Assembly (NCBI GenBank): GCA_015680685.1
Contig: MNCI01000651.1
Location: forward strand, 1,479,832 to 1,543,831
DNA length: 64,000 bases
From: Gnetum montanum
Lineage: Eukaryota > Plantae > Gnetophyta
Direction: 5' to 3'
In this document: positions 1,261 to 46,351 of the stretch, in pieces
Layout of the letters: the number at the start of each line of letters is the position of its first letter
Position numbering within the stretch: position 1 is the first letter of the stretch
The notes under the pieces: generated by a model
Told to the model about the DNA's origin: nothing
The model's input: the letters and a program-made list of their open reading frames with translations, nothing else
The model's database searches: none
Translations under genes and position numbers: made by a program

Positions 1261-2128
1261 TAATGAGTAGTGAGTATACCCTATGCCTAACCATACGAAT
1301 TACAAGCATTCATGCACAATCTGGTTGAATTCTATAGATCTTAAGTTTCCATGTACACTGGTTCTAGGAAGTGAAATCTAATGATGACATTTGTTGTCTT
1401 CCCAAATACACTTGTGGCGCTTAGTTGTATGGTTAAATGTAATTGAGGTAGATGATTTTTATTATTTTATATTTTATTCGCCTATGATTAATAACAAGTT
1501 GAAACTTAATTTATGAACCAATGTAACTAATATGATTGCTAATTAATAATTAACTATCCTAACATAAGCATCTGGTCCCACTTCCTATACACATCTTGAA
1601 CGCATACAACACTATTATATTACCAAGCATTAAGCACTACTAGGATTACCAAGTGTCATATGTTACGCTTGAAGCAGTTGCACTTATGTGTTCAATTTAT
1701 TTAGCTTAATTAATTAATCAATTAAAGTTTAGTTTAGCTTAATTAATTACATAATTAATGTAAATAGTAAATGTAGAAATAAATCATTAATCTATTCCAA
1801 GTGCTACAATGTATGATCAAAAGGCTCGTCTTTATTACCATTCACATTAGTGTGCTCAGGTACATCAGTGCTCGAATAAAGATCTATACACTTTCTAACT
1901 CCTACTACAGGCACTTAGAAAAATATTCTAACTCTCAAATGATAAAACTGCAAGAGCTCTGCTACAACTATGACAAGACATATGTCCAAACTGTGTGCCC
2001 AAGCACTATATTTATAGGTTGACACACATCTTACAATATTAGATATACAACATCTCTTCTTGGGTCCTAATTTTGGGCATCCAATATTAGGGCTTTGATA
2101 TTGGAGCTAGGCAAAATATAGTTCATCA
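1261..2128 (-). repeat. 3' LTR of element A (~868 bp)
   Basis: Aligns along its length with 10318-11184; plus-strand ends TAATGAG (decayed TGATGAG)...TTCATCA. Confidence 0.9.
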
Positions 2129-10298: not shown

Positions 10299-10316
10299 TC
10301 CCTAGCAACATCACCA
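10299..10316 (-). promoter_or_regulatory. Primer-binding site, tRNA-Asp type (decayed)
   Basis: Minus strand TGGTGATGTTGCTAGGGA versus the Athila consensus TGGCGCCGTTGCCGGGGA (complement of plant tRNA-Asp 3' end); directly abuts LTR. Confidence 0.75.
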
Positions 10317-10317
10317 A

Positions 10318-11184
10318 TGATGAGCAACAAGGATACCCTATGCCCAACCATATGAATTACAAGTGTTCATGCATAATCTAGTTGAATTCTGTAGACCTGA
10401 AGTGACCAGATACTATGGTTCTACAAAGTGAAATCTAATCATGATGATCGTTGTCTTTCCAACTACACTTGTGGAGCTCAGTTGTATGGTTAAGTGTAAT
10501 TGAGATACACGATTTTTATTATTTTATATTTTATTCACCTATGATTAATAACAAGTTGAATCTTAATTTATGAACTAATTTAATTGATCTTATTGCTAAT
10601 TAATAACTAACTATCCTAACATAAGCATCCACTCCCACTTGCCATGCACATCTTGAGCACATATAATGCTACTAGATTACCAAATGGTAAGCATTGCTAG
10701 GATTACCAAGCACCATGTGCATGGTAGAAAGGATTGTACTTATGTGTTTAATTTATTCAGCTTAATTAATTAATCAATTGAATTCTAGTTTAGCTTAATT
10801 AATTTCATAATTAGTGAAAATAGTAAATGTAGAAATAAATCATTAATCTATTCCAACTGCTACAAGGTTTGATCAGAAGGCTCATATTTATTGTCGTTCA
10901 CACTAGCGTGCTCAGGTACATCAATACTCGAATAAAGATCCATATACTTTTTGACTCCTACTATGGACACTTAGAAAAATATTCTAACTCTCAAATGACA
11001 AAATTGCAAGAGCTCTACTGCAACTATGATAAGACATATGCCCAAACTGTGTGCCCAAGCACTATATTTATAGGCTAACATACATCCCGTGATATCAAAT
11101 ATCTGACATTGCTTCTTGGGCCCCAATATCAGGTATCTGATATCAAGGATCTAATAATGAAGCCAGGTAAAATATGATTCATCA
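10318..11184 (-). repeat. 5' LTR of element A (~867 bp)
   Basis: TGATGAG...TTCATCA termini; followed on the minus strand by the PBS; TATA-like TATAAATA on minus at ~11064-11073. Confidence 0.9.
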
Positions 11185-11689
11185 CTTCCCAATGCATCAA
11201 GGGTGATCTTGGAGTGTCAAACTAGTATGATTTTTAAAATTTTTGGTATTATCATCAAACAATTGACCATTACATAAGCAACTATAATTCTCTCAAGGAT
11301 GATATACAAGATATGGTATCATGAGAGAAGAGAGTCTTCAACTTGCTAACATAGCTAGAAAATTAGGAGTTGCAAAATTTGCAAGATTGTTTAAGGACTA
11401 AGAATTTCATCTCTACTTTTAGGTTCAAGGGTCCTAAATAAGATGTTTGGGGGGTGGGGTGGGGGAGAGGGAAGGACAGCTAGACCAAATCAAGCTTTTG
11501 CATCATGTGAAGTATCACAAGCCATATTCCCTTGAGATCCTTCTTTTCCTTGTCCATCTAGATATTTGTATGTTATTGACTTAATACCATATTGAGATTC
11601 CCTTACATCTACTCCTATTAATCTTATGCCCATCATACTCCTATTACTTTAGTTTGTCCATGGACACCAAATTTGCAAGATTCTTTCTA

Positions 11690-13699: not shown

Positions 13700-16600
13700 C
13701 CTGCCAATCTTGCCATGGTAGAACAGAGGCAATCCCTTAGGTTGCATGGTCAAGATCTTGAATATACGGTGCTCAATGATGAGTAGTATAATTTCATTTG
13801 TACAAAACTCCAAGCATGCTTATGCATAGACCATGTAGGTATGGAGGAGAAGTGAGCTTATGAGCTCATACACCAAAACAAACAGGAGTATGTCCCTTCC
13901 TACGTTGACCTCATTCTGCACACCAAGGCCTATCAATGGATGCTTGATCAACTCATTTGACTAAATGAGTGTGAGGTAGGGATAGACTATGAGGAACCTC
14001 TACAAGAGGACCAAGATGAGTTTGAAGCTTATTTCAAGCATGAGAACTCTTTCCACACCTCTTTCTAGTAGACAACCGTTGGTTTTGTCCTCCCACAATC
14101 CTGTCAACCTGTCTTTCCTAAGATAGTTATAATCTTGGTGTCACCTCCTAGGTTAACACCCATGATGAAAAACCACCAAACACACTACACATGCCAAGAT
14201 GTACAACATTTTGTCAGCTTGCCCTTTGTGGTGCTAGCACATCCTGCTCACTCTTCCCTATAGACAGTCATCATTCCCACACAACCCTATGTGCACATCA
14301 TGCACATTTCTCAGTTGTAGATGACTTAGGCATCTTAATTCATGGTTGTCTCATTGGCACCCTCCATGGTAGTCCAACCCACTCATACATGGATGGCCCT
14401 AATTACCATGCCCATAGCACAACTGACACAGCAGGCATCGCACATGATCTCACAACCTATAGCTAGGTCATGGACCATAAAATTGGCATTGTAGGGGTCA
14501 CAACTAGCGTAGCCTCCTGCTACATCCCAAAAATTGGATTAGGTAGTCCAACTAATCCAAACATTAATAGAAGACTTCAAGCAGCTTAAGATGACCTCCT
14601 CTGAAATGGTTCATGTGATGGACTTTTACTAGGATGATCCAATAAGTCTTGTTGTTCCACCACTGAATTTGCTTGCTAGGGCCCCACTACCCTAATTCAC
14701 CAAATATAATAGTGAAGGAGACCCCAATGCTCACCTAGTGACCTTCTAGTCTAAATGCCTAGTACTACAAGCTTGGTTGCATGGCATCATATGCATGTTT
14801 ATCATGTCATTGACTGGTAAGGCACTTGATTAGTACTGTGCACTACCTAGGGCCTCCATTTTCTCTTTAGAGGATTTGCTAAGTCAATTTGTCATGCATT
14901 TCAAGTATAACTTGAAACCATAAATGACCCTGGATCAACTTATGCAAATTAAGCAAGGCCATTTAGAGTTTGTGCAAAAGTGCATACAATGCTAGAGTGC
15001 ATCGCTTAATGAAATCCATGAGTCAATTGCTGAAACACACCTGCTAGCAATCTTTAAGGGTCCGATGAATGACTTTATTAAGTCAAAGCTATATTATCTA
15101 GCCTTACAATCCATGAGCCAAGAATTTTCTCAAACTAAGAGCATTCAGGATGCGGTGAAAGCCAGCAAGGACCCATCCTATGTGGCCTACAAGAACCTCC
15201 ATGCTAAGAAGGACAAGGACAAGGGAAAATAAGCTATAGGTATGGCAACTGTTGCCAACAAGGCCAAGCCAACCATCACACGGCCAATGACCAGACCATC
15301 CAAGGTTGTGGTCAACAACAAGATGATTGGCCCTAGCACTACAGCAAGCAACTAACCTACATCTCGATAGCCGTGTGGCAAGCTCCCCCAAGGTCCAACT
15401 TTGAGTGCAAGGACCGCTCAAATTATACACTATTACCACTCAAACTGTCAAAACTCCTGGACCAATTACTCAAGGCTAGACACATCTAGTACAAGTAGAT
15501 GTTTAAGGACACTTGCAGAAGACATGATAGATACTGTGAGCTCCTAAGAAATTCCTTGGTTGCTACCCCAAATGATCCCCCAATCCCTAATAACTTTAGG
15601 ATGGACCAATTTTTCCACTATCATTAGTTGCCTAGTCACAACACTAACTTTTGTATGGCTTTGTAGGATGACATTTAGCGAATGATAGATAGAGGCAAGT
15701 TGCTCCTTGATGCCACTAACCTTGTTTAGCCTTAGAACTAATCAATGAGGGTCTACAAGAATCCTCTCAACACAAATGATGTAGGGAACATCATCAATGC
15801 TATTAGCTTTGATGACAACCTAGAACCTATGCAGTGGCCATTCATGGTCCATGCATCCTTTGGCAATGTAGGGGTCCCTTGGTCTCCACTAGTTCAAGGT
15901 CCTCCTTTGTTATCAAAGTTTCACCTTGAGCACCTATAGCACCCTTTGTGGTTAGGGTCTTACAACATGTTGCAAAAACAATTTTCTAGTCACCCTTTAT
16001 CGTCAGGGTGCTGCAACATGTAGACTCCGCATCTACCTAAATTCTGGTGGTAGGCAATTTATTAGTCCTTACTCATTCGAGGTTCCATCCTATAGGCAAT
16101 GCTAATAGACCATCCAGGTGGCAACTCGGTAGGCCTAATGAGCACCTTGCTGACAAGATGCTTAGGCAACATCAAGAGCAAAAAGCACGAGGCCCACCCA
16201 AGCCAGTACCCTTGTCCACTATCCCAATGGCCAAATCAACCGAGGAGGCCACCACTAGCAACTAGCAACTTAGCACTGAGGCTCTTAAATAGCCCAAGCA
16301 AGCTAAGCCCAACTCCCCTTCATGAGATATTTGTCTCTTGGACTACATGGAGGAGATTAAGGCCAACAAAATAGTCAATGGTAAGGACTTCATTGATGAA
16401 TTAGCCCAAGTAAAACAAGCCTTAAAATAGAAAAACATAATGCTAAGCTTATATGACCTAATAATGACCTCATCTACCCACTGTGAAGTGCTAGTCCAAA
16501 TGTTGACCTTCATTCCTATTATGGAGGACATCCTAGCTAATGAGCAATCCATCCATGTTGTGATGTTGCCACTTGCCCCTCAGGAATTAAGTTCAACACC

Positions 16601-19600
16601 CCTAGCATTTTGTGATTAGGCAATCAAGGTTGACTCTGAGAAGGGTTAGGTCATCATAGCTCCCATGTTTATTACAATATGTGTTGGGTAGTGTAAGATT
16701 AAGAGAGTGCATGTTGACGATGGGGCAGCAATAAACGTCATCCCATACACTATTGTTGACAAGCCAGGTCTGATCGATTATATCAAATGCACAAAAACAA
16801 CATGTCTAAAGTCCTTCAATGGGTCATTTGTCATTGTTAGGGGAACCATAACAATAGCCTTTGTGGCAAGGGAGCAATTCCCCACCACCGCAGAATTCAT
16901 CATTATTGAGAAGATGCTAGGCTTCAACCTAATCGTAGATAGGCCTTGGCTAGCCTAACTATGGACCATCTCCTCTCCCATTCACCAAGAAATCCATATT
17001 CCATACGAAGGTGGTGAGATGATCATTTATGGTGACAATGCAACCCCTCTAATCATCAACAACATAGACATAGAACAAGGGTCAGAGGTGGAGTTCCCTA
17101 ATGACATGCCTCCTATAAAGGACAATGGCAAAGCATGTGAGGTAGACCTACCTGAGCAAACAAAGAAGGTCAATGACCTCCTAAAGGATGCTTTGTGGAC
17201 AAAATTTCCCTTCAACATAGCTAAAAAAGGTCAAGGCAAGTACCACATAGTACAGTCTAGGCCCTATGCACCTCCTAATCCACATCGAGTTAGGAAACAA
17301 TTGCGCTAAGTGCCTACTAGTCCTTCATCTCTGCATATCTTGCTTGCTTGTATTTTTTATTCATGCATTTATGTTTAGCTTGGTTTTCTAAATTATGTAT
17401 ATTTTTCTTTGTTTTCACATTTGTTTCTTTTGTTTATGCATTTTTTCTTACCTAGTTACACATTTTCTTGTTTATCTTACCCTTTAGCAGTCATTAGTTT
17501 ACACAACATCAAAATACACAAAAAATCATAAAACTAAAATAGCAACACTAGGACCTAAAATGGCTTAAAACTACTTCTACAGCCCACCATGGCCTTAATC
17601 TAGTGACTCATGGCCCAGAATGGCCTTAAACTATCATAATTAATCCCAATGTTACGGCCCACCATGGCCTTAAACTAGCAACTCATGGCCTAGAATGGCC
17701 ATAAACTATTATTCCGTAATCCCTTCATTGTGGCCTAAAATGAACTTAAACTAGCAATCATGTGGTTCAAAATGGCCCTAAACTAGCATCAACCCTCCTA
17801 CTATGGCCTTACACTGGCATGGGGCTCACAATGGCCTAGTTGCATTCATTCGTTGCACTATTATCATAGTAAATACATAGCAAAATAATCACAAATGCTT
17901 ACACATCATCCACCATATATAGCAAACATATCCATTACATTTCACATGAATAATAAGTACATAGTGTGAGCATCAGTAGCATGTAGCAAAAACTACAAAA
18001 AAATGTAAAAGTTCCCAACAATAGGGATACATCAGAACATGCTCAACCAATGGTACTAGGTGGAGGTGGAGGTATTTCTTCTTCCGCTGGACTTCCGGGG
18101 CCTATAGCATCACCTAGTGCCTACCACCACAGAATAATGAAAAAATGAACAATCAATGAGCACATGTACAATATACAAAATAACATGAAAAGGCATAAGA
18201 ACAAACAAAAAACCAACCTAAAAAGGTCCCACATCGATCATGTTTAGAGGTAACCTATCAAGGCCATCCTCCAAGTGTTGAAGGATCTTTGCCTTAGATA
18301 GCTGTGTCTAGTCCTCTTAGAAAAAGTAAATCCCCACAAGGGTCTTACCTTTGTCCATGGTGGTCCATGCAGGCAACTCCATGGAAAAAGGTAGTAGATG
18401 AAGTCTCTCTTGAGGGGGTGACAATCTTCCCCTTAGGAGAGCCACTCACCATGGTATGCTGAGCAAACAACTTGTAGGATTTTCTCCCACATATCACCTC
18501 AAGAAACATCTCAAGGCAGTGGTGCTCAACAGATTCCTCCTTGTACCACCTAAGGTACACATCACGCTTGCATTTTTACTGGTGCTTATGGTTCTTTTGG
18601 GTCTACCCCCACCTATACACCTTAGTGCTGTAGTTTTTCAAGTCCTAGTTCTTCTGGGTAAGCAGATCCATCTGTAGTTGCTGCTTGATAATTTCTTGAG
18701 TAGCCTTATTTTTGCGATTGATAGCTAACCAGTACCTGGCATAATCTATCTTGGATGTTCTCTAGGTGCTATCTCCTTGTGACCTAGCCACCAAAAAATC
18801 ATATCAGGACTAAAGATCTTCAATCTTCGTGTTCTGGTTAGTCACTCTTTCTTGAAGCCCATGCACGCATTTCCACAGGTGCTCATTCAAGCGCTTGTAG
18901 ACCCACAATGCTTTTGCACAGGAAAGTGCACATTTTCTTTTTTTCTTGTACATACAATGAGACACCTAATAAATCTTAGGAGGGAGTTTAGGAAGGGCAT
19001 CTACTTTGGCTTCCCTACTCTAAATGTTTATCTCCATTCCTACTGTAGAGGACATCCTTGTCAATGAGCAATCCATCCATGCTATGATGTTTCCTCCTAC
19101 CCCCTTAGGAATCAAGTTTAACACCCCTAGCATTTCATGATGAGGTAATCAAGGTTAACCCTAAAAAGGGTTAGGTCATCATAGCTCCCATGTTTATTAC
19201 AATACATGTTGGACAATGTAAGATTAAGAGAGTGCATGTCAACGATGAGGCGACAACAAATGTCATCCCATACATTGTCATTGACAAGCTAGGTCTCGTC
19301 AATCAAATCAAACCCACAAAAATGATGTGCCTAAAGTCCTTCAATGGGTCATGGATCATTGTTAGGGGAATCATGACAATAGCCTTCATGGTAGGGGAGC
19401 AATTCCCCATCACTATAAAATTCATTGTTATCAAGGAGAAGCCAAGCTTCAACCTAATACTAGGTAGGCATTGGCTAGCCCAACTATAGGCCATCTCCTC
19501 TTTTATTCATCAAGAAATTCACCTTCCATATGAAGGTCGTGAGGTGATCATTTATGGTGACAATGCAACCCCTTTGACAATCAACAACATAGACTCAGAA

Positions 19601-21976
19601 CAAGGGATAGAGGTGGAGTTCCTTGATGATGTGCCTCCTATAAAGGACAATGGTAAAGCATGTGAGGTAGACCTACCTGAGCAAACAAAGGAGGCTAATG
19701 ACCTCCTAGAGGAAGCTTTGTGGGTCAAATTTCCCTCCAACATAGCTAACAAAGGTCAAGGTGAGTATTGCATAGTACAATCCAAGCACTATGCACCTCC
19801 TAATCCACACAAGGTTAGGAAAGAATTGCACTAAGTGCCTGCCAATCCTTCATATCTACATATCCTGCTTGTCTACATTTTTTATTCATGCATTTTCATT
19901 TAGCTTGGTTGTCTACATTATGTATAGTTTGCTTTGTTTTTTGCATTTATTTCTTTTATTTATGCATTTTTTCTTGCCTGGTTTATGCATTTAATTGTTT
20001 CGCTTACCCTTTAGTAGTCATTAGCTTACCCATGAAAAACATCAAAATACACAAAAAATCATAAAACTATAATAGCAACACAAGGGCCTGAAATGGCCTA
20101 AAACTACTGATATGGCCCGCCATGGCCTTAAAATAGCAACTCATGGCCTGGAATGGCCTTAAACTATCATAGTTAATTCCAATGTTATGGCCCACCATGG
20201 CCTTAAATTAGGAACTCATGGCCTAGAATGGCCTTAAACTACCATTCCTTAAGCCCTTCATCATGGCTGAAAATGGTCTTAAAGTAGAAATCGCATGGCC
20301 CAAAATGATCCTAGACTAGCATCAACCCTCTTGCTATGGCCTTAAACTAGCATGGGGCTCGCAATGGCCTAGTTGCATTCAATCATCGCACTATTAGCAT
20401 AGTAAATACATAGCAAAATAATCACAAAAGTTTACACATCATCCACCATATATAGCAAACGCATCCATTACATTTCATAGGAATAATAAGTACATAGTGT
20501 GAGTATTAGTATCATGTAGCAAAAATTACATAAAAATGCAAAAATGCACAACAGCAGGGCTGCATTAGAACATGCTCAACTAGTGGTACTAAGTGAAGGT
20601 GGAGGTATTTCTTCTTCCACTACACTGTTGGGGCCTACAACATCGCTTGGTGCCTACCACCACAGAACAATGAAAAAATGAACAATCAGTGAGCACATGT
20701 ACAATATACAAAATAACATGAAATGGCATAATAATAAACAAAAAAAACTAACCTGAGAAGGTTCCACATCAACCATGTTTCGAGGTAACCTATCAAGGAC
20801 ATCCTCCAAGCATTGGTGGATCTCTGCCTTAGATAGTTGTGTCCAATCCTCTTGGCCAAAGTCAATCCTTGCAAGGGTCTTACCTTTGTCCATGGTGGTC
20901 CATGTAGGTAGCTCCATGGAAAAGATAGTAGATGAAATCTCTCCTAAGGGGGTGACAATCTCCCTCTCAAAAGAGCCACTCACCATAGTATGCCAAGCAA
21001 ACAACTTGTAGGACTATCTCCCACTTCTTGCCTCATTAAACATCTTAAGGCAGTGGCATTCAACAATTTCCTCCTTGTACCACCTAAGGTACATGTCATG
21101 CTTATGTTTGTACTGGTGCTTGTGGTTCTTTTGGATCTACCCCCACCTATAAACCTTAGTGTTGTAATTTTTCCTATCATAGTTCTTCTAGGTGAGCAAA
21201 TTCATTTGTAGCTGCTGCTCGATAATTTCTCAAGTAGCCTTGTTTTTGCCCCTAATAGCTCACTAGTACCTGACATAATCTATCTCAGACATTCACCAAG
21301 TGCTATCTCCCTATGACCTAGCCACTAGAAAATCATATTAGGATTGAAGATCTTCAATCTTCATGTCCTGGCTAGTCACTCTCTCCTGAAGCTCATAGAG
21401 GTGTTTCCATAGGTGCTCATTAGAGTGACTACAGACCTATAATGCTTTTGAATAGAATAGCATGCATTTTCTTGCTATCTCATACATATAATGAGACACC
21501 TGATCAATCTTAGGAGGGAGTTTAGGAAGGACATCTACTTTGGCTTTCTTGCTCTAAATGTTAACTTTCATTCTGGTTGCAGAGGACATCCTAGCTAATG
21601 AGAAATCCATCCATGTTGTGATGTTGCCTCTTGCCCCTCAGGAATCGAGTTCAACATCCTTGGCATTTTGTAATGAGGAAATCAAGGTTGACCCTAAGAA
21701 GGGTTAGGTCATCATAGCTCCCATGTTTATTACAATACATGTTGGATAGTGTAAGATTAAGAGGGTGCATGTCAACGATGGGATGACAACAAATGTCATC
21801 TCATACACTATCGTTGACAAGCTAGAACTCATTGATCAAATCAAACCCATAAAAATGATGTGCTTGAAGTCCTTTAATGGATCACACATCGTTGTTATGG
21901 GAACCATAACAATAGCCTTCATGGTAGAGGAGTAATTCCCCACCATCGTAGAATTCATCGTAGTAATTCCCCACCA
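13700..21976 (+). mobile_element. Degenerate Ty3/gypsy (Tat/Ogre-like) gag-protease derivative lacking RT/RH/INT, with tandemly repeated protease+3' region unit
   Basis: Gag remnant P*FTKYNSEGDPNAHLVTF (~14690), gag Zn-knuckle-like FFHYH*LPSHNTNFCMAL*DDI*RMIDRGK (~15610-15700), retropepsin KRVHVDDGAAINVIPY...FNLIVDRPWL (16660-16960); no RT motifs seen. Confidence 0.75.
16498..21976 (+). repeat. Tandem ~2.52-2.53 kb repeat, two full copies plus one truncated copy
   Basis: Anchor GAGGACATCCT..AATGAG.AATCCATCCATG at 16524, 19048 and 21582; each copy has the protease, an ATGGCCTTAAACTA repeat cluster and an antisense ORF remnant; third copy stops at ~21976. Confidence 0.9.
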
Positions 21977-26887: not shown

Positions 26888-28329
26888 AGAACCAAATTTG
26901 ATTTTAAAAGAAGAAGTTTCTAACCATAGTCTCTTTAGAAATCAACCAATTTGATAGGAAAAACTCATCAAGTATTTTGGTTTCATGAAGCATGTGTATC
27001 TCTTTACTTTTCATGCCTTGATTCATAATTGTGTACGTTAATATTTTTGGTTATACAAATAAATGCAAAATCTTCTTCAAATTTAATTAATTGTTTTCAA
27101 CATGATTTGGATGTGTATATTTGAATCATTGTATTCTTTAATATGTTTTCTCTTTATTTCAAATAAGAAATATTTCCTTGATAATTTCCAAATAATTAAT
27201 TAACTCATAGTGATCTTGATAATAAAGCCTTAAAAGAAGAACAAGTAGGGTTTGGATCAACTTGGTGAAATGGGAAAGAAACAATGATAAAATGACTAAC
27301 CTGAGAATTGTAAAGTGATGTATTGGCATGATATTAATGATGGGTTAAAGGGAATGTGAGGGTAGTACTCTATTTCATAGGTTCCAACTTCTACCAACCT
27401 AGAGATGCAACATAAAGCATAATTTATCATTAATCTATTATATCATTTAAACATCTGCTAACTTTTTATTCTTATCTAATGCTAAGCTTTTTATGTAGTC
27501 TTAACTAATCTCACCTAGCAACTGATAACTATTGTAGCCTTGGCAATACACAACATGAGCTTACACATTCATCATGCATAGGCAATCAGTACTCCACAAA
27601 TTCAACATACATAGACAATGGATTATCTCATTCAATGTAAATGGGTACTTCTTATATCTATAGATTTATCATGCATAGGTAATAGATGATTACCACATAA
27701 CTTCCTTAAGTCCATGGATTCATTATGCTAGACATCAAGCTAGTTATCTTACCATTCAAAACCATGATGCTTTTGGTTAACTAATGATATTGTACCTTTA
27801 TCCATATATCTTCTAAGAGGAAGATTCTTGAAGGAAGAGGAGGACATCACACCTACGTATTTTCAAAGCTTATAATCAAATGAGTATCCTAAAACTAAGC
27901 TTTTATTAATCTTGTTAATACACGTTAACCTTTATTTTCCTTTGGTTTCTTTGACTTATTAGTTTTCTTGAATGACAAGTTGTGATTTTGATTTCTTAGT
28001 TTGATTCCTTTCACATTGCTTAGATTCCCAATCTTAACTTTGATAGTATGTATCAACATTAGAATAGATCTCTAATTATGTTAATTTTTTAAATATTATC
28101 AAGTGTTATGTGCTTCCTAGGTATATTGTTATTTTATTAGTTTCTTAAGTTTTATTCTTGTTTTCTAGCATGTGCATATTTCATCTTTTCTTATCGATAT
28201 GGTCTTATTTTATTTCCAAAAGCTTATTTTATCATGAGATCTCTAATTTGATGCCATGCACTAATATCTTTGATTTCATGTCAAGAAAATCTTGGATCAA
28301 TGCTTGGTATGCTAGTCATTCATTTTAAA

Positions 28330-29121
28330 TCTTAAGCAAATTACATTGCTCAAGCATTAGTTTGATTGTCTTGGATGCTAATTTGCATCTATGCCCATTT
28401 GTAATTAACTCATAAAGTTGTATTGTTTGATCATGAATCAGTAGGGCCATCCTTAGGAAATAAAAGGGAAGTATCATTTCAGTTACAAAGAGATATAAGA
28501 AGTGAAGAAGTGTATGATGTATAACAAAGATTGTGAGATAAGCAAGAATGTAAGTAATTGATATCCAATGAAGAAGAAGAGGAAGAGGAAAAAGATTAAG
28601 TCAACAAATTATCAAACATTGTAAGGAAAGAAAAAAAAGTTACGATGATCAATCATTATAATCCATAACAAACTTCATATCTAAATAGTCAAAGATATTG
28701 TCAAACATCATTTGCCACAGAAGTGAAAGTGCAAAGTAAATAAGACTCTAAAAAGAAACAAAATCCAAGTTCCTAAAGAGAAAAAGAAGATCCAAGTTGA
28801 GCCAAGCATCATTTTGATCTAGTTTCTTAAATAAGTAGAAAAGATCAATTGGGAGGCTTCACTGAAGAAGATGCTACAAGGAAGTGTAACTAAGTTATAC
28901 ACAAAATTTATACATTAACCAATTGGTTGGGAATGACAACGGTCTCCATCAGAAGCCCAATCATCAAGTTGTAATCTGTAATTTATGACATTCATAAAGA
29001 TTCTTAAATAATAAGAATTATTAAGAAAATATTAAGTTGAGTAGTTATCAAATTAACATCCTAACAACAAGATCCTTGTGCATATTAGAGTTTTCTAATG
29101 ATGTATAACGAAAATCTAACA
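28330..29121. repeat. Copy 1 of a diverged ~0.8 kb direct repeat (copy 2 at ~45568-46351) in an old unclassified element that element B inserted into
   Basis: Shared blocks TTAAGCAA.TTACA.TGCTCAA.CATTAGTTT, AAGTAATTGATATCCAATGAAGA.GA.GAGGAAGA, ATCTAGTTTCTTAAATAAG, TATACATTAACCAATTG, TTCATAAAGATTCTT, TTAGAGTT.TCTAATGATGTA. Confidence 0.8.
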
Positions 29122-29152
29122 CAATATCAAAGCATGATTATGGTTAAGAAAG

Positions 29153-30223
29153 TGATGAGTGGCGAGGTACCCCTACACTCAACCATACGAATACGAGCAT
29201 GTACGCGCGATCCGGTCGAACTCCGCAGACTAAATGCCTTAACGCCACAAGAAACACTTGGGGTTAATCGTTCGTTGTCTTCCCAGGCTTGCTTGTAGGT
29301 GTCACGGTGTATGGTTAAGCAAGTCTGAGGTATATGATTTTTTTGGTATTTTTCAGTTTATCTCCTAAGCTATGAGGGAAAGGGTTGAGAAACTAACTAA
29401 CTCTAACTAATGTCCTAAGTCTAAATTAACTAGCGTCAGCATCCGTTCCCACTTACCGGACACACCCTGAACTATGCAACTGCAGCTTACCAAACGCTAA
29501 TCGTTACTGGGATCGCCACACGTAACGCAAGTGCTCGAAGTGGTCGTACTGAGGCACCTATTTAGCCTACGTGTGATAAGCAGCCGATTCCTTAGCCAGC
29601 CGTACACACCCGTGGGTGCTCGTAACTAAGTCGTACTTATCACACGATCTAGCCTAGCAATGAGCAGCCGATTCCTCAACTAGCCGTACACATTGGACCC
29701 TGGAGTTACCAAGCGCAGAATCCTGGAATACGCTACTGGGTTACCAAGCAGCCAATGCTCGTAATTGAGTCGTACTCATGCATTGCGTCAAGCAGCCGAT
29801 TCCTTGACTAGCCGTACACGTCCGTAGACGCTCGTAATCAAGTCGTACTTGAACGCACTAGGAAAGCAGTAAATGAAAGCAATAAATGAAACCACGTGCT
29901 GCAAGGTTTATCCAATCAAGTTCGTCTTTATTGCCGTACACAACTTGGGTTCAGGTTACAAGCTGCTCGAATAAAGAGCCGTTCACTCTAGGACTCCTAC
30001 TGCGGGCACATGGGGAAAAATTCTAACTCTGGAGTGATCAATCTGCCAGAGCTTCGCTACACTAGCCAGGATTGGGAAATGAAGGGAGTGCCGCCTCTTA
30101 TTTATAGATATGGCGGCGGGACGCGATATCGCGTACGCGATATCGCAAGAGAAGACGCGATATCGCATACGTGATATCGCATGGGACGCGATATCGCGGC
30201 CTAGTGCAAGTCGCGTCTCATCA
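29153..30223 (-). repeat. 3' LTR of element B (1071 bp)
   Basis: TGATGAG...CTCATCA termini; minus-strand TATAAATA at ~30098-30105; minus-strand AATAAA at 29927-29932. Confidence 0.95.
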
Positions 30224-31619: not shown

Positions 31620-32175
31620 GGTCGACGACGCCACGTACAGACACTGCTGCAATTTTGTGGATTCAAACCTTTGAATGGTGGAATCGCCCAGGGACCTGAC
31701 CTATTTATGCCAAAACCCTCGTATCCGAACTTGCACCTCGACATTCCGATCCTCCTTGTTTCACATGCAAATTTGAGCAGAAATTTAGAAAGCGGATGAA
31801 CAACTGTTGCTGCTGGCCAATCTCTGACAATGTAGGAAGCCATGCCTGGCATGAACAAGGAAATACTGAACAAAAAAAAAGGGTATGATTCCATCTTCTC
31901 AAAGAGGGACGGCAAAGACAGAGGAGACACACAGTTCGATGATTTCGTAATCTACAATCCTGATCAGGCTATTCCCAGGTACGTGGTTCATTACAAGAAT
32001 CTCAAATGTGACCCTACAAACTACATCCCCACAACCATCTCTTCTTCCTCTGACAATCTCATTTGAATCAAGTACGAGAAATCTCCAATGTTCTTAGGGG
32101 ACAGCCCTGAAGAGTACCATTTCCGGTTGGCAGAGTCCCAGTTTTTCAGAATGTCAAGCAGGCAAGAGTACAAGG
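31620..32175 (+). pseudogene. Fragments of a PARP/ADP-ribosyltransferase catalytic-domain gene captured inside the solo LTR
   Basis: QLLL...SLTM*EAMPGMNKEILNKKKGYDSIFSKRDGKDRGDTQFDDFVIYNPDQAIPRYVVHY resembles the PARP C-terminal strands (GYDS...[E]FVIYNxxQxxPxYxVxY); followed by FLGDSPEEYHFRLAESQFFRM. The H-G-T and Y motifs are missing; stops present. Confidence 0.65.
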
Positions 32176-32732
32176 ATCTCCAGCAGTTCTTGAGCTTCTG
32201 CACCGTCATGTGCATCAATGACCATTCTCTGTAAGCGTTCCTGGAACGACGCTAGTGGAGCCTGCTATGCTTAACAAAAAAAATCACCTGTTTTTCCAAA
32301 CACATCATTGGATCTTCCGTGGTCACATCAGGTTTCATACAGAATGGCATCCCCAGTGTCAAAGAGAGAGAGGCATAACGCGGCAAGTTGTAACCCTAGT
32401 TTCAGCGCCTACAACACGTGAGCCCGATAGATATGATTAAATATATAAAGTTTTCTGCAGCTTGGCCAAGGGGAGATAGATGATCAAATTTTATTTATTG
32501 ACCTTTATGTTATTCCTAAATATACATATATAAAGTTATATGTATAGCTATTTTATAAAAAGAGGGATTTATGGACATTTCCAACTATAGCTTTTATTTA
32601 TATAATTGTAACTTTATGTGGAAGTTGTAACTTCCTAGCCTTAATCCATGATGTAGGCCACTTGTCAACTAAATGGGCTACTTCTCAACCACCAAGGACA
32701 CGTGTCAACTGCAACTTGTTTCTCTCCATGGT

Positions 32733-35744: not shown

Positions 35745-38429
35745 TTAGCATAGGTGGCCATCTCCCCCATGACTGAGTTGTAAGGGAGAGATCCGAAATA
35801 GTGAGCGTGGTTGACCGCTAGTAGAAGCGTGACTGGCACTAGCTGGTGCAGATTCACGGAAAAGTTTTGTTTGTTGTACATTAACCAACAACCTTTTATC
35901 CATGCTATCAGGCTTATATATCATCAGGGCGCCGAAGGGAAAGGTAGTATGAATAATGTAAGGTCCTTCCCACAAGGTCTGAAACTTCATACGTTGGGGT
36001 ACATGTGTGGGGTTCCAGTAAAGGACCTTATCTCCTGGTTTATATCTAAGCCTCCGGATCCTTAGGTCATGCCGTTGTTTACTATGTGCTTTGTGCAACT
36101 CATTTAACGACAGGGCAACCAATCGATTCTCATCTAACACATTCAAAGTTGCCAGTCGTTGTTTGTGTGCTAGGTCAAGATCCAGGTGAAATTCATAAGC
36201 CATGGATAGTGTATGAAGCTCACTTTGTATAGGCAGTTTTGGAAGTTTCCCATACACTAGCTCATAGGGAGAATATCCTGTAGGGAGTTTCCAAGTGGAA
36301 CGATACGCCCAAAGAGCGTCATTCAATTTCGTGCTCCAGTCTCGCCTAAATTTGCTAATCGTTCGTGTTAATATTCTGGTAATCTCCCTATTAGTAACTT
36401 CAGCTTGGCCATTAGCTTGAGGATGGTAAGGTGTGGTCAGTTTATGCTCAACCCCTAAGCGTTGCATCAACTTTCTAAAGGTTGCACCTGTAAAATGCGT
36501 TCCATTTTTGGAAATAAGTGCACGTGGTACACCAAATCTATTAACGATTTGTTGCTGTACAAATCGGGCAGCTGTAGATGATGTGCAATCTATTACAATA
36601 GCTGCTTCAGCCCATTTGGTTAAGTAATCCACAGCAACGATTATATATGCTTTTCCGTTGGACATTGGTGTAATCGGTCCCATGAAATCAATCCCCCAGA
36701 TGTCAAAGGGTTCCAAAGGTTGAATCCATTGTTGTGGACCCTCCATCTTAGCAGTCATTCCCCCATCACGTTGGCAGTGCTCACAGGATTGAGCAAAATG
36801 ATGGGCATCCCGAAACAGCGTTGGCCAATAATATCCCGCCAGCAGGATTTTAGTGGCTGTTCGTCTCCCAGCATAATGACCCCCACAAGGGCCCTCATGA
36901 GCATCCTGGAGGACTTTTAATTGATCTTGATCGGGAACACACCATCGAACTAGGCCATCAGAGCAGACTTGATAGAGTTGTCCCCTAATTTCCATGAAGT
37001 ATTTGAGGTTGTGAAGAAACCGTTGTTTCTTCCTAAAGTCTAACTTTTGCGGCATTTGTTGGGAAGTAAGATAGGTGAGAATGATGTTATACCAATTTAT
37101 GTCTGTGGGTTGATTATTTATCACACCAGCAAAGAGGGTTTCATCAGGAAAATGGTTAGATACCATGTATTCGTCCTCTTTGTTGTCCCATGGCAACCGA
37201 GATAGGTGATCGACGATGACGTTCTCGGTGCCCTTGCGGTCTACAATAGTTAAATCAAACTCTTGTAGAATCACTAGCCAACGTATGATACGTGGGCTAA
37301 CCGTTGGCTTATTCATAACAAACCTAATTGCACTATGATCTATGTGGATATATACCTTGTAACCTAATACATAGTGTCTAAACTTATCCAGTGCAAACAC
37401 AACAGCCATTAATTCTTTTTCTGTAGTTGTGTAGTTAAGTTGTGCACCGGTAATGCTTTTACTGGCACAATGGATGTAATAAGTTCGTTTTTGTTCATCT
37501 AATTGTGTTAGTACAGCTCCTAAAGCATAATTGGATGCATCGATCATGATATGGAATGGTCTGGACCAGTCAAGTGCTTGTAGAATGGGAGTTTCCACAA
37601 ACCTTTGTTTGAGAGCCTGGAATGCTTGTTCACACTCCCTGGTCCATTCAAATGGTGCATCTTTCTTTGTTAATTCTACCAACGGTTTGGAAACTTTTGA
37701 AAAGTTCACAATAAACCTCCTGTAGTAGCCAGTGTGTCCAAGGAATGACCTCACGTCTTTAACGGTTTCCGGTTGTCGGGTAATTCCTTGGATGACTTTA
37801 TTTTTTTCTAGGTCAACTTCGATCCCTGATTGTGAAATTTTGTACCCCAACACGATGCCCTCTTGAACCATCAAATGGCTCTTTTGCCAGTTGAGCTTAA
37901 GGTTGGTTTCAACACATCGTTTCAATACTTGCTCTAACCGGTCGAGGGCTTGATCAAAGCTCGTTCCATAGGTGGAGAAGTCGTCCATGAAGACTTCTAC
38001 TCCATTGCCTATTTGTTGTTGAAAAATACTTAGAACTAAGCGTTGAAACGTGGCAGGTGCATTACACAAGCCAAAAGGCATTTGTTTATATGTGAACGTT
38101 CCCCAAGGACTGGTGAACGTTGTTTTGGCTTGGTCTTCTGGTGCAATGCGTATTTGGTTGTACCCGCTATATCCATCCAGAAAACTGTAATAGCGATGCC
38201 CGGCTATAGTGTCTAAGACTTGGTCCACAAATGGCAGTGGGAAGTGGTCTTTGAAGGTTGCCATATTTAACAGCCTAAAATCTATACATACCCTCCATTT
38301 ACCTCCCTTTTTCGGTACGATGACAAGAGGGCTAACCCATTCGCTGTCAGCGATAGGGTAAATGAACCTGGCCTTGAGAAGTTGTTCTAGTTCTTCCTTA
38401 ACAATTTTTTCAGTTTCAGGTTCAATCAC
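35745..38429 (-). CDS. pol: Pol: reverse transcriptase - RNase H - integrase (894 aa open frame; part of interrupted gag-pol)
   Basis: IYPIADSEWVSPLVIVPKK, LDGYSGYNQI, MPFGLCNAPATFQR, EVFMDDF, DASNYALGAVL, NYTTTEKE, HEGPCGGH...CEHC, WGIDFMGP, YHPQANGQAE, WEGPY; no chromodomain and no extra RNase H. Confidence 0.95.
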   Translation of the reverse strand: MIEPETEKIVKEELEQLLKARFIYPIADSEWVSPLVIVPKKGGKWRVCIDFRLLNMATFKDHFPLPFVDQVLDTIAGHRYYSFLDGYSGYNQIRIAPEDQAKTTFTSPWGTFTYKQMPFGLCNAPATFQRLVLSIFQQQIGNGVEVFMDDFSTYGTSFDQALDRLEQVLKRCVETNLKLNWQKSHLMVQEGIVLGYKISQSGIEVDLEKNKVIQGITRQPETVKDVRSFLGHTGYYRRFIVNFSKVSKPLVELTKKDAPFEWTRECEQAFQALKQRFVETPILQALDWSRPFHIMIDASNYALGAVLTQLDEQKRTYYIHCASKSITGAQLNYTTTEKELMAVVFALDKFRHYVLGYKVYIHIDHSAIRFVMNKPTVSPRIIRWLVILQEFDLTIVDRKGTENVIVDHLSRLPWDNKEDEYMVSNHFPDETLFAGVINNQPTDINWYNIILTYLTSQQMPQKLDFRKKQRFLHNLKYFMEIRGQLYQVCSDGLVRWCVPDQDQLKVLQDAHEGPCGGHYAGRRTATKILLAGYYWPTLFRDAHHFAQSCEHCQRDGGMTAKMEGPQQWIQPLEPFDIWGIDFMGPITPMSNGKAYIIVAVDYLTKWAEAAIVIDCTSSTAARFVQQQIVNRFGVPRALISKNGTHFTGATFRKLMQRLGVEHKLTTPYHPQANGQAEVTNREITRILTRTISKFRRDWSTKLNDALWAYRSTWKLPTGYSPYELVYGKLPKLPIQSELHTLSMAYEFHLDLDLAHKQRLATLNVLDENRLVALSLNELHKAHSKQRHDLRIRRLRYKPGDKVLYWNPTHVPQRMKFQTLWEGPYIIHTTFPFGALMIYKPDSMDKRLLVNVQQTKLFRESAPASASHASTSGQPRSLFRISPLQLSHGGDGHLC

Positions 38430-41400
38430 CTCTGGGGTTGTTTGTGAGGTTTCATAGAAGGATCTGTATAAATCCTATGTTGGCATATCCGAGGATCTAT
38501 CCCAGTTAGTTCAGGATACGACCAAGCAAAGGCGGCTGACCACTTGTTTATCACCCTTAGCAAACTTTCTTTTTGCGTGGACACAAGCTTTGCGTTGATG
38601 ATCACCGATTTTTCATTTTTGAGCGTCACGTATTCCAAACCGGTGGGTAACGGTTTCAACTCTAGGGGTTCTTGTTTAAACTCCTCAAGAATCTCCAACT
38701 TCCCCCAATTAATATTTTCGAAGTTAAGGGCTGGAAGTTGGCAGCGAACTTGCTCCAATACGTCTGCGCTTTCAAGGTAAGCACTAGTTATTCCCTCAGT
38801 TAGTTCCATGCAAGTAGTTGGTTTGCTATCTTTATCAGCCATCAGCCACTGAATGTCTTCTCGTTGTGTGGCTATTGTATATAGGCACTTTTATATATTA
38901 ATGTCCTACGCACACCGATTGCATGCAGGCAATGTTAAACTTCGCATTACCCATGATTTCTGCACGCAATGACACCCTGTGTCACTATATGCGATGCATG
39001 GAACTCTTTTCCTCTCAATTTTCCCAAATGTATTTGTCTTGGATATTTCTAGGGAAAGGTTACGAATTTCTAAGCGAGCGTCGATTGTATTTGGCCATGC
39101 CCTTCCCATGATAATTGGGAAATCCCCTTTGTCATTATTTATTTCGATCACTAGGAAATCGGCTGGATATGACCACCCACCGACAGTTGTGACGATGTCT
39201 TCAACCTGTCCCAGAGGAACAGTGATGGACTGGTCAGCCAGTTCAAGGCGGACGTTGCTCTTCTTGAGTGGAGGTAGGTTCTAGGTCTTATACAATTTTT
39301 GTGAGATTAAGTTAACCCCGGAACATAAATCGAGAAGAGCCTTATGGGGTTCATTCCCAGCGACTTGAAGGTAAACTAAGGGGACTCCTGGATCTGATAA
39401 CTTCTTTGGAAGGTGGCCAACTTTGATCCAGTCAGTTACTGTATGCGTTAACATAACTGTGTGCATTGGACGTGATTTCGCTACTGGAAGATTTCCCGAA
39501 ACCGCGTTAGGTGTGGGATTGTTAGGAGGCTCAACTGCTTGTGAGGGCGAAGGCTTAATTGGATTGTTGGTCCTAAGGAAGGATCTTTTTGGTGAACGAT
39601 TGGTAGAACCAACTGAGGTTGAAGGTTTAGGGGCCCTCGCAGTGTTGGGTTGTCGCAGCTAAGTGGGATTTACTCTAGGCCTTGTTGGGGTAGTGGATGG
39701 TGCAACCGTAGGTGCAAGAGATGCGGATGAACTTGGAGGACATCATGGGTATGGGACGTTCCCCGAAGGAGGGGGAGTCCGAAAATACTCCTGAACTTGG
39801 TAGTAACATGGAGGTTTTATGTGACCTATAAAGCTACCTGGAGGAACTGGCTGTTGCACATAATAACCGTAAGGATCAGGCTGCCGGTAAGGGTATTGCT
39901 ATTTTGGCAATGGCATCCCCCATGACTGTGGATATTGCCATTGCTGATGTTGTCTGATGGGCTGAGGTGGAGTTCCACTTGGGTAATACGTTAGTGGTTG
40001 GTGGAACTGCCTTGGGTTACCTTGTGGATAAGGTAACCTTCGGGGTGTTTGCCGTTGATTAAGTCTTGGATTTAATGCATACACCCCAGTCTCCTGCAGA
40101 TGTGAGATAATTGGACAACATCCTTTAGGATGCACATAGTAGCAGACCTCACATCCACTATCATTGTCTGAATTAGAATTTTCAGCCACATCGGAGTTAG
40201 TGATTTTTCCCTTACCCTTGTTATGTGCAGGGCTTAAATCTCTCCTCCTTTTCTTTCCTTTGTCACTACTTTGCTCAACCTTAGACTCTTCTACAATTTT
40301 CAAGACTATTTCTATTTGTGAGTCTAAGGAATCCCACATTTGGTCTACCTTAGCCGATACCTCCGTTGTTAACTTCTGGATCGGCACGGTTTTCCTGTTC
40401 ACCAACTCTTCGAGTGGTGACTCATCCTCCTCATCACAGAATTTCACTCCCTTCTTGCGAAGGGAGGGATCGCAGTTGTATTCTTCCGCACTTTCTCTCT
40501 TCCGTAGCTCACCCTCTTCTTGCGCTACTTGTTCCAACAAGCTTTCAACTTCATGGGCTCTTAGTTGGGAGAGTCTCCCTTAGGCGTAAGTCCCAAGAGT
40601 TCTTCTCATTTCATTCCTTAGCCCATCCACGATGTGGCGAAGTTGATCCCGCTTAGCGTACCCATGGCCCGGGCAACAATGTAACAATGTGTAATAGCGG
40701 GCCATGGCAGCATCCAAGGGTTCATGAGTACCTTGTTTCCAGCCTTGGATCTGCTTCCGCAAGTTGGACACTCTAGAGTACGTTTGATATTTGTTGTTGA
40801 ACAATTCAAGCATCGTACTCCACCTCCTGATGGTTTCCGGTTCTAAGGACCGGTACTAGCTCTCTGCTTCTTTGGTGAGTGTCCTTGGGAACAACTTGAG
40901 CTTCTGCCACTCACTATCAATGTTCTGCAAGGCACAAGCATCGTGGAATGCCTGTAGATGATTTTGCGGATCAGCATTGTATCCCCCTTCAAATCGTGGG
41001 ATATTATTTAGGTCCAAACGCTTGATCCGACTATCCTTTAAATACCTTGTGGGAATCCTAACTGCCTCTGTTATGTCAAGCATACTTCGGGTTGCGAGCA
41101 GGGGTTTGTCATGGTCATCTCTTTCATGACGTCTATGATGTCTACGTGGTGGTTCCCTACTTTCCCTATGTCCTTGCCCTTGTCCTAACTCCTCTCGACG
41201 TTCTTGTCGAGGTATTTCATCTTCCCTTTTACTTTTACTCTCTCCGTTATGCTCACGATGGTTGCGCCCAGATGTGGAAGGAGAGTGTGAATGGTGAGAT
41301 GAAGGAGAAGAGGAAGGGGATCCATCATCATGGCGATGTTTCTTACCTTCTCTTCAGCTGCTTCGGCCCCGATCGTTGTGATGACCCAATTGTCTGTCAT

Positions 41401-41965
41401 TAGTGTGAGTAGTTGTTCCTGCCGTGAACAGTTGGTGCTCATGGGGATCAGGGCCTGTAGCATGTACAGTTGATCGAAGGCCCTGATGCTTTACCTCTTC
41501 ACCAGAGTGAGGAGGAGGAACATCATTTTCTAAGAAACCCATTGTGAGGGGTTCCTCATCTCCTATTTCACTAATGACATGGGGAACCTTGCCCTTCAAT
41601 AATGAATGTTGGCTCTCCTGCCTTGCATCCCGAATACGTTGGGCATTTGTGGGATGATAATCCCTTATGTCATAATCATCCAAAACGTATTCCGCAATCA
41701 GTTCTTGCATGCCAGTCTGTGCTAAGGCACGGAAAAGCATGTTAGGGGCAAATCTATCTGGGGGTAACACGATGTTACCTTGCAGATCTCTCCATCGCAG
41801 TTGTTCATCTTGATGGAAAATAAAAGTAAAGTCAGGGACATACTCATCAGGATGAGTATATGTGACCTTGGATTGTTTAGGACCTGGCTGATCTGGGTTA
41901 TGCGTCTGATGCTAACCTTCTCCTGTGTTGCCCTTAAGTGAGTTAATTTCATGAGAAGAACCCAT
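38426..41965 (-). pseudogene. gag: Gag and aspartic protease of element B, interrupted by stops/frameshifts
   Basis: ATG at 41965 (MGSSHEIN...); capsid-like PRFEGGYNADPQNHLQAFHDAC...KLKLFPRTL, LLHCCPGHGY, CEVCYYVHPKGCCP; protease LSDPGVP...ALLDLCSGVNLI and PIIMGRAW. Confidence 0.9.
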
Positions 41966-42092: not shown

Positions 42093-42110
42093 TCCCCAGC
42101 AACGGCACCA
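42093..42110 (-). promoter_or_regulatory. Primer-binding site complementary to tRNA-Asp
   Basis: Minus strand TGGTGCCGTTGCTGGGGA, two C>T changes from TGGCGCCGTTGCCGGGGA, the PBS typical of Athila-lineage elements. Confidence 0.88.
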
Positions 42111-42111
42111 A

Positions 42112-43170
42112 TGATGAGTGGCGAGGTACCCCTACACTCAACCATACGAATACGAGCGTGTACGCGTGATCCGGTCGAACTCCGCAGACTAAATGCCTTA
42201 ACACCACAAGAAACACTTGGGGTTAATTGTTCGTTGTCTTCCCAGGCTTGCTTGTAGGTGTCATGGTGTATGGTTAAGCAAGTCTGAGGTATATGATTTT
42301 TTTGGTATTTTTCAGTTTATCTCCTAAGCTATGAGGGAAAGGGTTGAGAAACTAACTAACTCTAACTAATTTCCTAAGTCTAAATTAACTAGCGTCAGCA
42401 TCCGTTCCCACTTACCGGACACACCCTGAACTATGCAACTGTGGCTACCAAATGCTAATCGTTACTGGGATCACCACACGTAACGCAAGTGCTCAAAGCG
42501 GTCGTACTAAGGCACCTATTTAGCCTAAGTGTGATAAGCAGCCGATTCCTTGGCTAGCTGTACACATCCGTGGATGCTCGTAGCCAAGTCGTACTTATCA
42601 CACGTTCTAGCCTAGCGATGAGCAGCCGATTCCTTAACTAGCCGTACACATTGGACTACCACTGGGATTACCAAGCGCAGATCCTGGAATACGCTACTGG
42701 GTTACCAAGCAGCCAATGCTCGTAGTTAAGTCGTACTCACGCGTTGCGACGAGCAGCCGATTCCTTGATTAGCCGTACACATCCGTAGATGCTCGTAATC
42801 AAGTCGTACTCGTGCGCACTAGGAAAGCAATAAATAACAATGAAATAAAACCATGTACTGCAAGGTTTATCCAATCAAGTTCTTCTTTATTACCGTACAC
42901 AACTTGTGTTCAGGTTACAAAGTTGCTCGAATAAAGAGTCGTTCACTCTAGGACTCCTACTGCGGGCACATGGGAAAAATTCTAACTCTGGAGTGATCAA
43001 TCTGCCAGAGCTTCACTACTTCTAGCCAGGATTGGGAAATGAGGGGAGTGCCGCCTCTTATTTATAGATATGGCGGCGGACCACGATATCGCGTACGCAA
43101 TATCGCGTACGCGATATTGCAGGGGATGCGATATCGCGGCGGCCGCGATATCGCATGTCGCGTCTCATTA
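42112..43170 (-). repeat. 5' LTR of element B (1059 bp)
   Basis: TGATGAG...CTCATTA (one terminal change); aligned to 29153-30223. Confidence 0.95.
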
Positions 43171-45567: not shown

Positions 45568-46351
45568 CCTTAAGCAAGTTACAATGCTCAATCATTAGTT
45601 TTGTCATCTTGGATGCTGATTTGTGTGTCTATCCCAATTCGTAATTAAAGTCATAAAGTTATAACCTTTGAGCATGAACAATCATGACCATCCTTACAAA
45701 ATAAAAGGGAGGCATCATTTGAGTTATGAAAAGATATAATTGAAGAATAACATGTATGATATATAACATAGAATTTAAAGTAAGCAAGAATATAAGTAAT
45801 TGATATCCAATGAAGAGGAGGAGGAAGAAGAAGGGTAAGTCAATAAATTGTCAAATGTCATAAGGAAAGAAGAACACCAATTTGTGATGATCAACCATCG
45901 TAACCCATGACAAACTTCATAACTAAATAGCCAAAGGTGTTATCGAGTATCATTGGCTAGAGAAATGTAGGCACCAAGTAAATAAAACTATGAAAAAAGT
46001 CAAGATCCACTTTCCTAAAGAAGAAGAGAAGATCCAAGTTGAGTCAAGCATGAGTTTAATCTAGTTTCTTAAATAAGAAGAGAAGATCACTCAAGAGGCT
46101 TCTTTGAAGTAAAAAAGATGCTATAAGTATAGCTAAGTTGCACACATAGTTTATACATTAACCAATTGACCAAAGATAACAAAAGTCTCCACTTTAAGAG
46201 TAACAATCAAGTAGTAAATTAATGTAATTTATGATATTCATAAAGATTCTTGAGTAAATTTTTTTAAAGAAAATATTAAATTGAGTAGTTATTAAGTTAA
46301 GATCCTTGACTAAATTAGAGTTATCTAATGATGTAAAATCAAACTCTAACA
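45568..46351. repeat. Copy 2 of the ~0.8 kb direct repeat
   Basis: Colinear match to 28330-29121 as listed above. Confidence 0.8.

Follow-up and report, generated by a model that had tools for sequence, protein, structure and literature searches.

The LTRs of a Ty3/gypsy element in Gnetum montanum carry, in what would be the leader of its RNA, a series of hairpin modules that repeat the same internal loops between different stems. This raises the question of whether the modules form a selected RNA structure and, if so, what reads it. Within the window (the whole 64,000-nt stretch of DNA analyzed here), the element, hereafter element B, covers 14.0 kb on the minus strand and bears modules in both LTRs. 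Its main features are the following.

29153..30223, minus strand: 3' LTR of element B, 1071 bp, 91.7% identity with the 5' LTR
42112..43170, minus strand: 5' LTR of element B, 1059 bp
29148-29152 and 43171-43175: TSD of element B, GAAAG, 5 bp at both ends
30100..30106, minus strand: TATA box TATAAAT, kept in all four LTRs of element B and of a second family, A
42093..42110, minus strand: primer-binding site (PBS), 18 nt, directly abutting the 5' LTR, which we take to be of the tRNA-Asp type
38429..41911, minus strand: gag-protease frame, stop-broken, with a Retrotrans_gag domain and one Cys/His knuckle-like motif, the latter within an unbroken stretch at 39899-40579
35745..38474, minus strand: pol (RT, one RNase H, and integrase)

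Based on structural features rather than a labelled phylogeny, element B fits an Athila-like assignment. Its domain order is GAG-PROT-RT-RH-INT, as in Athila, and with a length of 14.0 kb and a 5-bp TSD on both sides it lies within the range given for Athila in the available part of PMC6317226 (7.3–22.8 kb, 5-bp TSD, and a tRNA-Asp primer site in 72%). Neither an extra RNase H nor a chromodomain was found in the element B pol, where a 697-N gap follows the pol stop, and the extra RNase H family was seen in none of the 120 pol relatives listed; Tat lineages without it exist (Z1 and Z2, according to the part of PMC10508981 at hand). The pol matches that span most of the query reached only ~47–50% identity. 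Gag has a basic region and, at its N terminus, a long extension that includes a charged, Arg/His-rich stretch. The extension before the Gag core (40856–41911, minus strand; ~350 residues, in frame, with one stop) is not basic in net charge, and a homologue search with it found none, only weak atlas leads.

The element B LTR was detected in 20 of 24 listed public runs (nine organism labels); a single run contributes 130,586 contigs that map on it, which points to a very high-copy family. Upstream of the TATA box, U3 holds an array of GCGATATCGC palindromes (30118–30198 and 43086–43155) that recalls the palindromic U3 region of Sireviruses, and CpG observed/expected is near 1 throughout both LTRs. 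A stop-broken PARP-domain fragment of a host gene (31650–32230, plus strand) lies antisense within the 3' region of element B; its best matches are gymnosperm PARP-helicase proteins (54–58% identity), and it is likely a captured gene piece and the chief pointer to a probable gymnosperm host. An older repeat pair flanks the element (28325–29121 with 45563–46351), and elsewhere in the window there are a 2.5-kb tandem duplication (16491–21961) and a Ty1/copia element (58003–62470).

As the preliminary description had it, five modules are found in both LTRs, the stems named there pair, and the array lies downstream of the TATA box of an Athila-like LTR. Transcription probably starts ~30 nt downstream of that box. 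The modules are listed below.

29925-29977 (29921..29985 with the flanking inverted motif), minus strand: M5, stem UCUUUAUU/AAUAAAGA with loop 2 inside
29785..29856, minus strand: M4, outer, middle, and inner stems, two loops, and a c(UACG)g tetraloop
29657..29781, minus strand: M3, M4-like core and an apical sub-domain with two UGGUAA hairpins
29570..29646, minus strand: M2, M4-like core and a c(CACG)g tetraloop
29433..29555, minus strand: M1, a diverged module with two apical hairpins, common to family A
42392..42937, minus strand: modules of the 5' LTR (M5 42884-42937, M4 42746-42817, M3 42615-42744, M2 42529-42603, M1 42392-42515)

Read on the sense RNA, M2–M4 run from an outer stem through loop 1 (CGA / GAAUCGGC), an 8-bp middle stem, and loop 2 (CGAG / UGUACGGC) to an inner stem, and each core module measures ~72 nt. 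Invariant loops, which had been claimed for all five modules, hold for M2–M4, but not for M1, whose loops are diverged (GAA-CGGA and UGUCCGGU), nor fully for M5, which has only loop 2 in normal orientation. An inverted copy of the loop-1 motif lies outside the M5 stem, and the M5 motifs are in a two-fold arrangement; when folded without constraints, the 3' LTR copy forms this inverted motif, which is degenerate in the other three LTRs (the 5' LTR of element B and both family A LTRs). A sub-domain with a second hairpin had been assigned to module 2, where it does not occur; it belongs to M3 (29657–29781) and M1, each of which has two UGGUAA hairpins there. Using a two-loop descriptor, we counted 9–10 motifs per LTR, one of them inverted, and none elsewhere in 64 kb. 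All 23 descriptor matches in 64 kb fell on the sense strand of the element B LTRs, a result in which only the absence elsewhere is informative, given that the descriptor was built from element B sequences. The recurrence of the motif, including the inverted copy, suggests that the motif itself has been under selection, rather than just a hairpin that was duplicated. A model built from the six M2–M4 copies detected M1, which was outside its training set, in both element B LTRs (E 3e-7 and 5e-5), and gave E-values of 0.06 and 0.11 for M5 and of 0.08 and 0.21 for the family A M1. The best 12 of its 17 matches were all on the minus strand, in the four LTRs.

Two LTRs of family A, which is also present in the window, have a shorter array.

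1561..1881, minus strand: modules of the family A LTR near 1260-2140 (decayed M5 1829-1881, M1 1561-1691)
10618..10941, minus strand: modules of the second family A LTR near 10315-11185 (decayed M5 10889-10941, M1 10618-10747)

A hairpin had been noted as common to both families; it is indeed present in A, but this was too narrow, as the whole M1 and M5 modules are shared, and both are kept across A and B, two families that are ~70–75% alike. M2–M4 are absent from family A (two modules in A and five in B). Since family A has M1 and M5 only, the array has grown or shrunk. At the place of M3/M2, family A carries short AT-rich palindromic hairpins with similar linkers (1700–1770 and 10745–10815, minus strand). 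Among public-run contigs, ends at 29639, 29660, and 29849 hint at sub-families with other outer stems, and the same loose ends, where a module is fused directly to the U-rich tract or the U5 tail, hint at fewer modules. We also considered a sixth module, at the 5' end, but rejected it because a local hairpin there is better supported.

To describe pairing and sequence change, the M2–M4 copies were compared within and between the LTRs. All stem cells of the six copies are paired (108/108), and in 8 of 18 pairs both partners have changed; none of 500 shuffles matched this pairing, a count that is not a probability as the six copies are related sequences, and slid-register controls paired at 17–42%. 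Of 128 stem positions, 17 differ from one LTR to the other and touch 11 pairs (six double changes, five single changes, and none broken), compared with 1 of 69 loop positions (Fisher p 0.004), as had been anticipated for loops more conserved than stems. Random scatters gave at least six double changes in 5 of 200,000 cases, and four of the six double changes are, by eye, away from CpG. The proposal of co-varying modules stands for M2–M4.

Common family alleles were taken from public runs (20 listed and 3 from the 40 shown of 189). Thirteen of them lie in stems and one in loops (p 0.022), despite a larger number of CpG positions in the loops (24) than in the stems (6). Pairs are kept by 10/13 alleles when read on the sense strand and by 6/13 on the other strand, although this single-site test is weak alone (10/13 against a null of 0.55, p 0.10). 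In two of the three pair-breaking cases, the 5' LTR carries a compensating partner. One common allele changes the tetraloop from CACG to UACG, presumably a member of the same tetraloop class. Taken together, the G-U wobbles, the c(UACG)g and c(CACG)g tetraloops, and the allele pairing bear out the earlier reading of the fold on the sense RNA; a fold at the DNA level was disfavored by weaker folds and C-A mismatches. Joints that skip modules reach a depth of at most 465, compared with ~1e6, in the public-run contigs. These results support the modules as a real, selected modular RNA structure on the sense transcript, with covariation that appears in a small set of sequences (six related copies and two LTRs).

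Divergence between the LTRs is uneven (26/295 in M4–M2, 29565–29859 versus 42524–42820, and 6/277 in the U5 tail, with the TSD intact), and many of the differences equal common family alleles, a pattern that points to gene conversion, a recombinant element, or a mosaic in the assembly. In the RNA run X19, 93 contigs cover 29/29 M2–M4 bins; without a DNA control, these were not counted as transcription.

Predicted stability differs among the modules. M4 and M2 alone form stable folds on the sense strand (z -2.6 to -5.0), whereas M1 and M5 alone are not significant (z +1.1 to -1.6), and the whole 581-nt region does not exceed shuffles in stability (z 0.27). Within the whole leader, the M5 stem has a probability of 0.01 and is not the favored fold; similarly, the constrained fold of M1 lies 2–8 kcal/mol above the minimum and is not its own minimum-energy fold. 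The cognate arm is the best partner for each module strand in 8/8 rows, and different stem sequences mean that each module folds with its own arm. A predicted dimer of the M4–M2 array, ~12 kcal/mol below two monomers, was left unused because any hairpin array gives this. Two other candidate roles were set aside: splice donor, because the GGUAAGU-like words in M1 are not kept in family A, and small-RNA precursor, because there is no invariant 21-nt stretch.

The region between the modules and the PBS holds three further features that bear on function.

29863..29893, minus strand: U-rich tract after AAUAAA, by its sequence likely the poly(A) region
29282..29330, minus strand: further U5 hairpin, its loop holding AACCAUAC
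29186..29205, minus strand (also 42145-42164): U5-terminal segment, whose sequence complements three of the four invariant module strands

The AAUAAA at 29927–29932 sits in the 3' arm of the M5 stem and, with the U-rich tract after it, would place M5 in R and M4–M1 in U5, an R/U5 boundary that we infer by sequence alone. If the poly(A) site follows this AAUAAA, M4–M1 would be present only in the leader of the full-length RNA. The same AAUAAA pairs either upstream, in the M5 stem, or downstream with 29878–29885 (minus strand), and both pairings hide the signal, like a poly(A)-signal hairpin. In the U5 hairpin, 6 of 12 pairs are double-changed between families A and B (two families only), and its AACCAUAC is complementary to GUAUGGUU near the U5 end (29180–29187); both words are kept in A and B and could form a long-range pseudoknot. 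AAGACA (29276–29281 in the 3' LTR of element B) comes after this hairpin in all four LTRs.

The U5-terminal segment lies ~35–55 nt before the PBS, and its complementarity to the module strands amounts to 7+7+5 bp. A double 7-mer of this kind occurred in 24 of 20,000 Markov controls, which is a post hoc figure, and the two copies of the segment rank first and second among element 22-mers outside the modules, with a lead of ~1 kcal/mol. Neither GAAUCGGC nor CGGC has a partner in the segment. For M4 and M3, pairing with the segment is predicted to be 5–7 kcal/mol weaker than the self-folds (-22.6 vs -29.9 and -43.6 vs -48.6), so that a chaperone would be needed. In the 3' LTR, M1 is predicted to be invaded via U5-terminal segments, with a joint fold 5.5 kcal/mol better, whereas the joint fold with M1 of the 5' LTR uses other segments. 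The common alleles at 29199 (80–100%) and 29202 (81–100%) keep the RNA pairing, one via G-U, and create an 8-nt self-complementary word near the U5 end; a palindromic hexamer was not found in any module hairpin loop.

As the best explanation of these observations, to which we give roughly an even chance, we propose that the modules are a docking array for the Gag/nucleocapsid of the element, used in packaging and dimerization of its full-length RNA. Fixed loops, exchangeable stems, variable repeat number, and the U5 position all favor recognition by Gag, a protein with a basic region, a knuckle-like motif, and a charged N-terminal extension. The protein would select, dimerize, and package full-length RNA through the array, of which M4–M1, as parts of U5, would be carried only by the 5' leader of that RNA, upstream of the PBS. 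Each rod would show the same motif twice, 6–8 bp apart (5'-CGA-3' opposite 5'-CGGN-3', with a predicted 2-nt bulge), while the individual stem sequences would keep each module folding with its own arm, and more modules may confer higher avidity when sub-families compete for a shared Gag. As a later step, pairing of the U5-terminal segment with module strands, in one RNA or across two, might be enabled by a chaperone and would link the array to dimer formation and priming; it leaves GAAUCGGC unaccounted for.

Several points speak against docking by Gag. M1 and M5 are not favored folds in the leader, the N-terminal extension of Gag is without relatives found and not net basic, and the modules lie upstream of the PBS, unlike most retroviral packaging signals, which are mostly downstream of it. 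The gammaretroviral core packaging signal, which comprises twin tetraloop hairpins and dimer-initiation palindromes, resembles the array in having duplicated hairpins with conserved loops in the leader and a palindrome near the primer site. However, the modules conserve internal rather than apical loops, and the array is upstream of the PBS, inside the LTR, and varies in number from two to five. Dimerization and packaging signals have been invoked for a plant LTR element in the available part of PMC3735527. An unlikely extension of the docking array is an address system in which identical loops are read by Gag or by the PBS-side segment, stems serve as barcodes, and module number rises with competition, with a new catalytic RNA at the far end of the same range of ideas.

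The main rival, which we regard as improbable, is that a host factor recognizes the loops and either exports the unspliced RNA or aids ribosomes past the leader, in the manner of the retroviral elements CTE and PCE. The ~930-nt leader contains 7–8 upstream AUGs and hairpins of -27 to -45 kcal/mol that should block scanning, and the two-fold arrangement of motifs in M5 would also suit such a reader; however, extra stable hairpins hinder translation unless a helicase is recruited, and plants, to our knowledge, have no NXF1 orthologue. The module layout is as in the MPMV CTE and the PCE (PMC7551171 and PMC2657110, each in part), but there is no sequence likeness to either (no Rfam match). Like the modules, the MPMV/SRV CTE is described in the accessible text of PMC7551171 as a rod of RNA in which stems hold two conserved internal loops; the modules differ in loop sequence, lie in the LTR leader, and form four to five rods in tandem. 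The gamma-CTE loop word AAGACA, from the same part of that source, is absent from the module loops and occurs once outside them (29276–29281). The PCE likewise consists of redundant stem-loops in the R-U5 of a 5' LTR (available text of PMC2657110), the R/U5 assignment being inferred in our case; that text does not describe it as repeats of one fixed internal-loop motif, and the host here is a plant.

A rather doubtful proposition is that the loops are fixed by pairing with the U5-terminal segment itself, as an RNA-RNA switch that times dimerization or reverse transcription with no protein reader. Such a switch would draw on the 7+7+5 bp complementarity, on the alleles at 29199 and 29202 that keep pairing and make the 8-nt palindrome, and on the predicted invasion of M1 in the 3' LTR (5.5 kcal/mol better). 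The complementarity is, however, a post hoc finding, the energy model makes the exchange unfavorable for M4 and M3, covariation between tail and loops is absent, and the joint fold of M1 in the 5' LTR uses other segments. Moreover, GAAUCGGC and CGGC are left without a partner, and part of the tail has other conserved partners.

It is highly improbable that each module is an unrecognized self-cleaving or self-ligating RNA that works like the hairpin ribozyme, with its two internal loops docked against each other. A pair of conserved internal loops set between stems that can be exchanged is a small-ribozyme layout, and ribozymes are known in the LTRs of plant retrozymes and in Penelope elements (both from the available part of PMC6765202). 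The two loops of a module are nevertheless coaxial and 6–8 bp apart, M5 has one normally oriented loop, and in an element that is autonomous, cuts in U5 would detach R from the primer site. Catalytic RNA is the least likely of the four functions that the preliminary description listed without choosing among them (packaging/dimerization signal, IRES, protein-binding array, and catalytic RNA), because repeated U5 cuts would separate R from the PBS. The earlier remark that the modules do not match hammerhead, hairpin, or twister ribozymes held, in that the core words as we know them are missing from the modules, and NGUC occurs only in stems or at diverged positions. Rfam models, ribozymes included, likewise left the module regions of both LTRs unmatched at E up to 10; outside the modules the search gave only weak miRNA-type and sRNA matches. 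Retrozymes and hairpin ribozymes share with the modules a structured RNA in a plant LTR and two internal loops (PMC6765202, in part), and differ in that the modules have no hammerhead or hairpin core, are multiple, and belong to an element that is autonomous in layout.

The least probable reading, that a hairpin without function was tandemly duplicated and its stems matched by template-switch or palindrome correction, is already largely refuted: M2–M4 are clearly duplications and, being absent from family A, are not required by every family, and template switching can yield double changes, but such correction should also erase the asymmetric loops and G-U pairs, the CpG-rich loops are fixed while stems vary, M1 and M5 persist across two families ~70–75% alike, and module-skipping forms are rare.

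Pattern scans of viral contigs gave one chance match and then none, and searching viral contigs with pol likewise turned up no relative; 17 matches in metagenome contigs included none with paired stems or similarity to element B, and prokaryote genomes gave 0 matches. The modules do not fit a kink-turn, in which two helices flank a 3-nt bulge beside tandem G-A pairs: tandem G-A pairing is feasible in loop 1, but by eye its extra bases are on the wrong strand, and there is no C/D box word. The literature that was covered, which included the available parts of the supplements of PMC3762812 and PMC6317226 and of bioRxiv 10.1101/2024.04.02.587720, with subscription journals and repeat libraries outside this scope, contained no description of the modules that we found. 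Gymny and other Athila-like elements of gymnosperms are likewise Athila-like Ty3/gypsy elements of high copy number (PMC2633040 and PMC6317226, in part), and Gymny was compared by description only, as the accessible text of PMC2633040 describes only part of the LTR and the term 'secondary structure' is absent from it. The modules appear to be undescribed. Most likely they act in cis as a signal for replication; elements of that kind are known, but the motif is new and the expandable layout is unusual.

Whatever their function, the modules would enter Rfam as a new RNA family. Athila-like elements make up a large part of big plant genomes, and almost nothing was found in the literature on the RNA signals by which plant LTR elements choose RNA for packaging or translation. 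The ~72-nt motif is naturally replicated with a built-in compensatory series, which would make probing, binding, and cleavage tests direct. If module number does track amplification success, the array would offer a molecular handle on the expansion of families in genomes of gymnosperm size.
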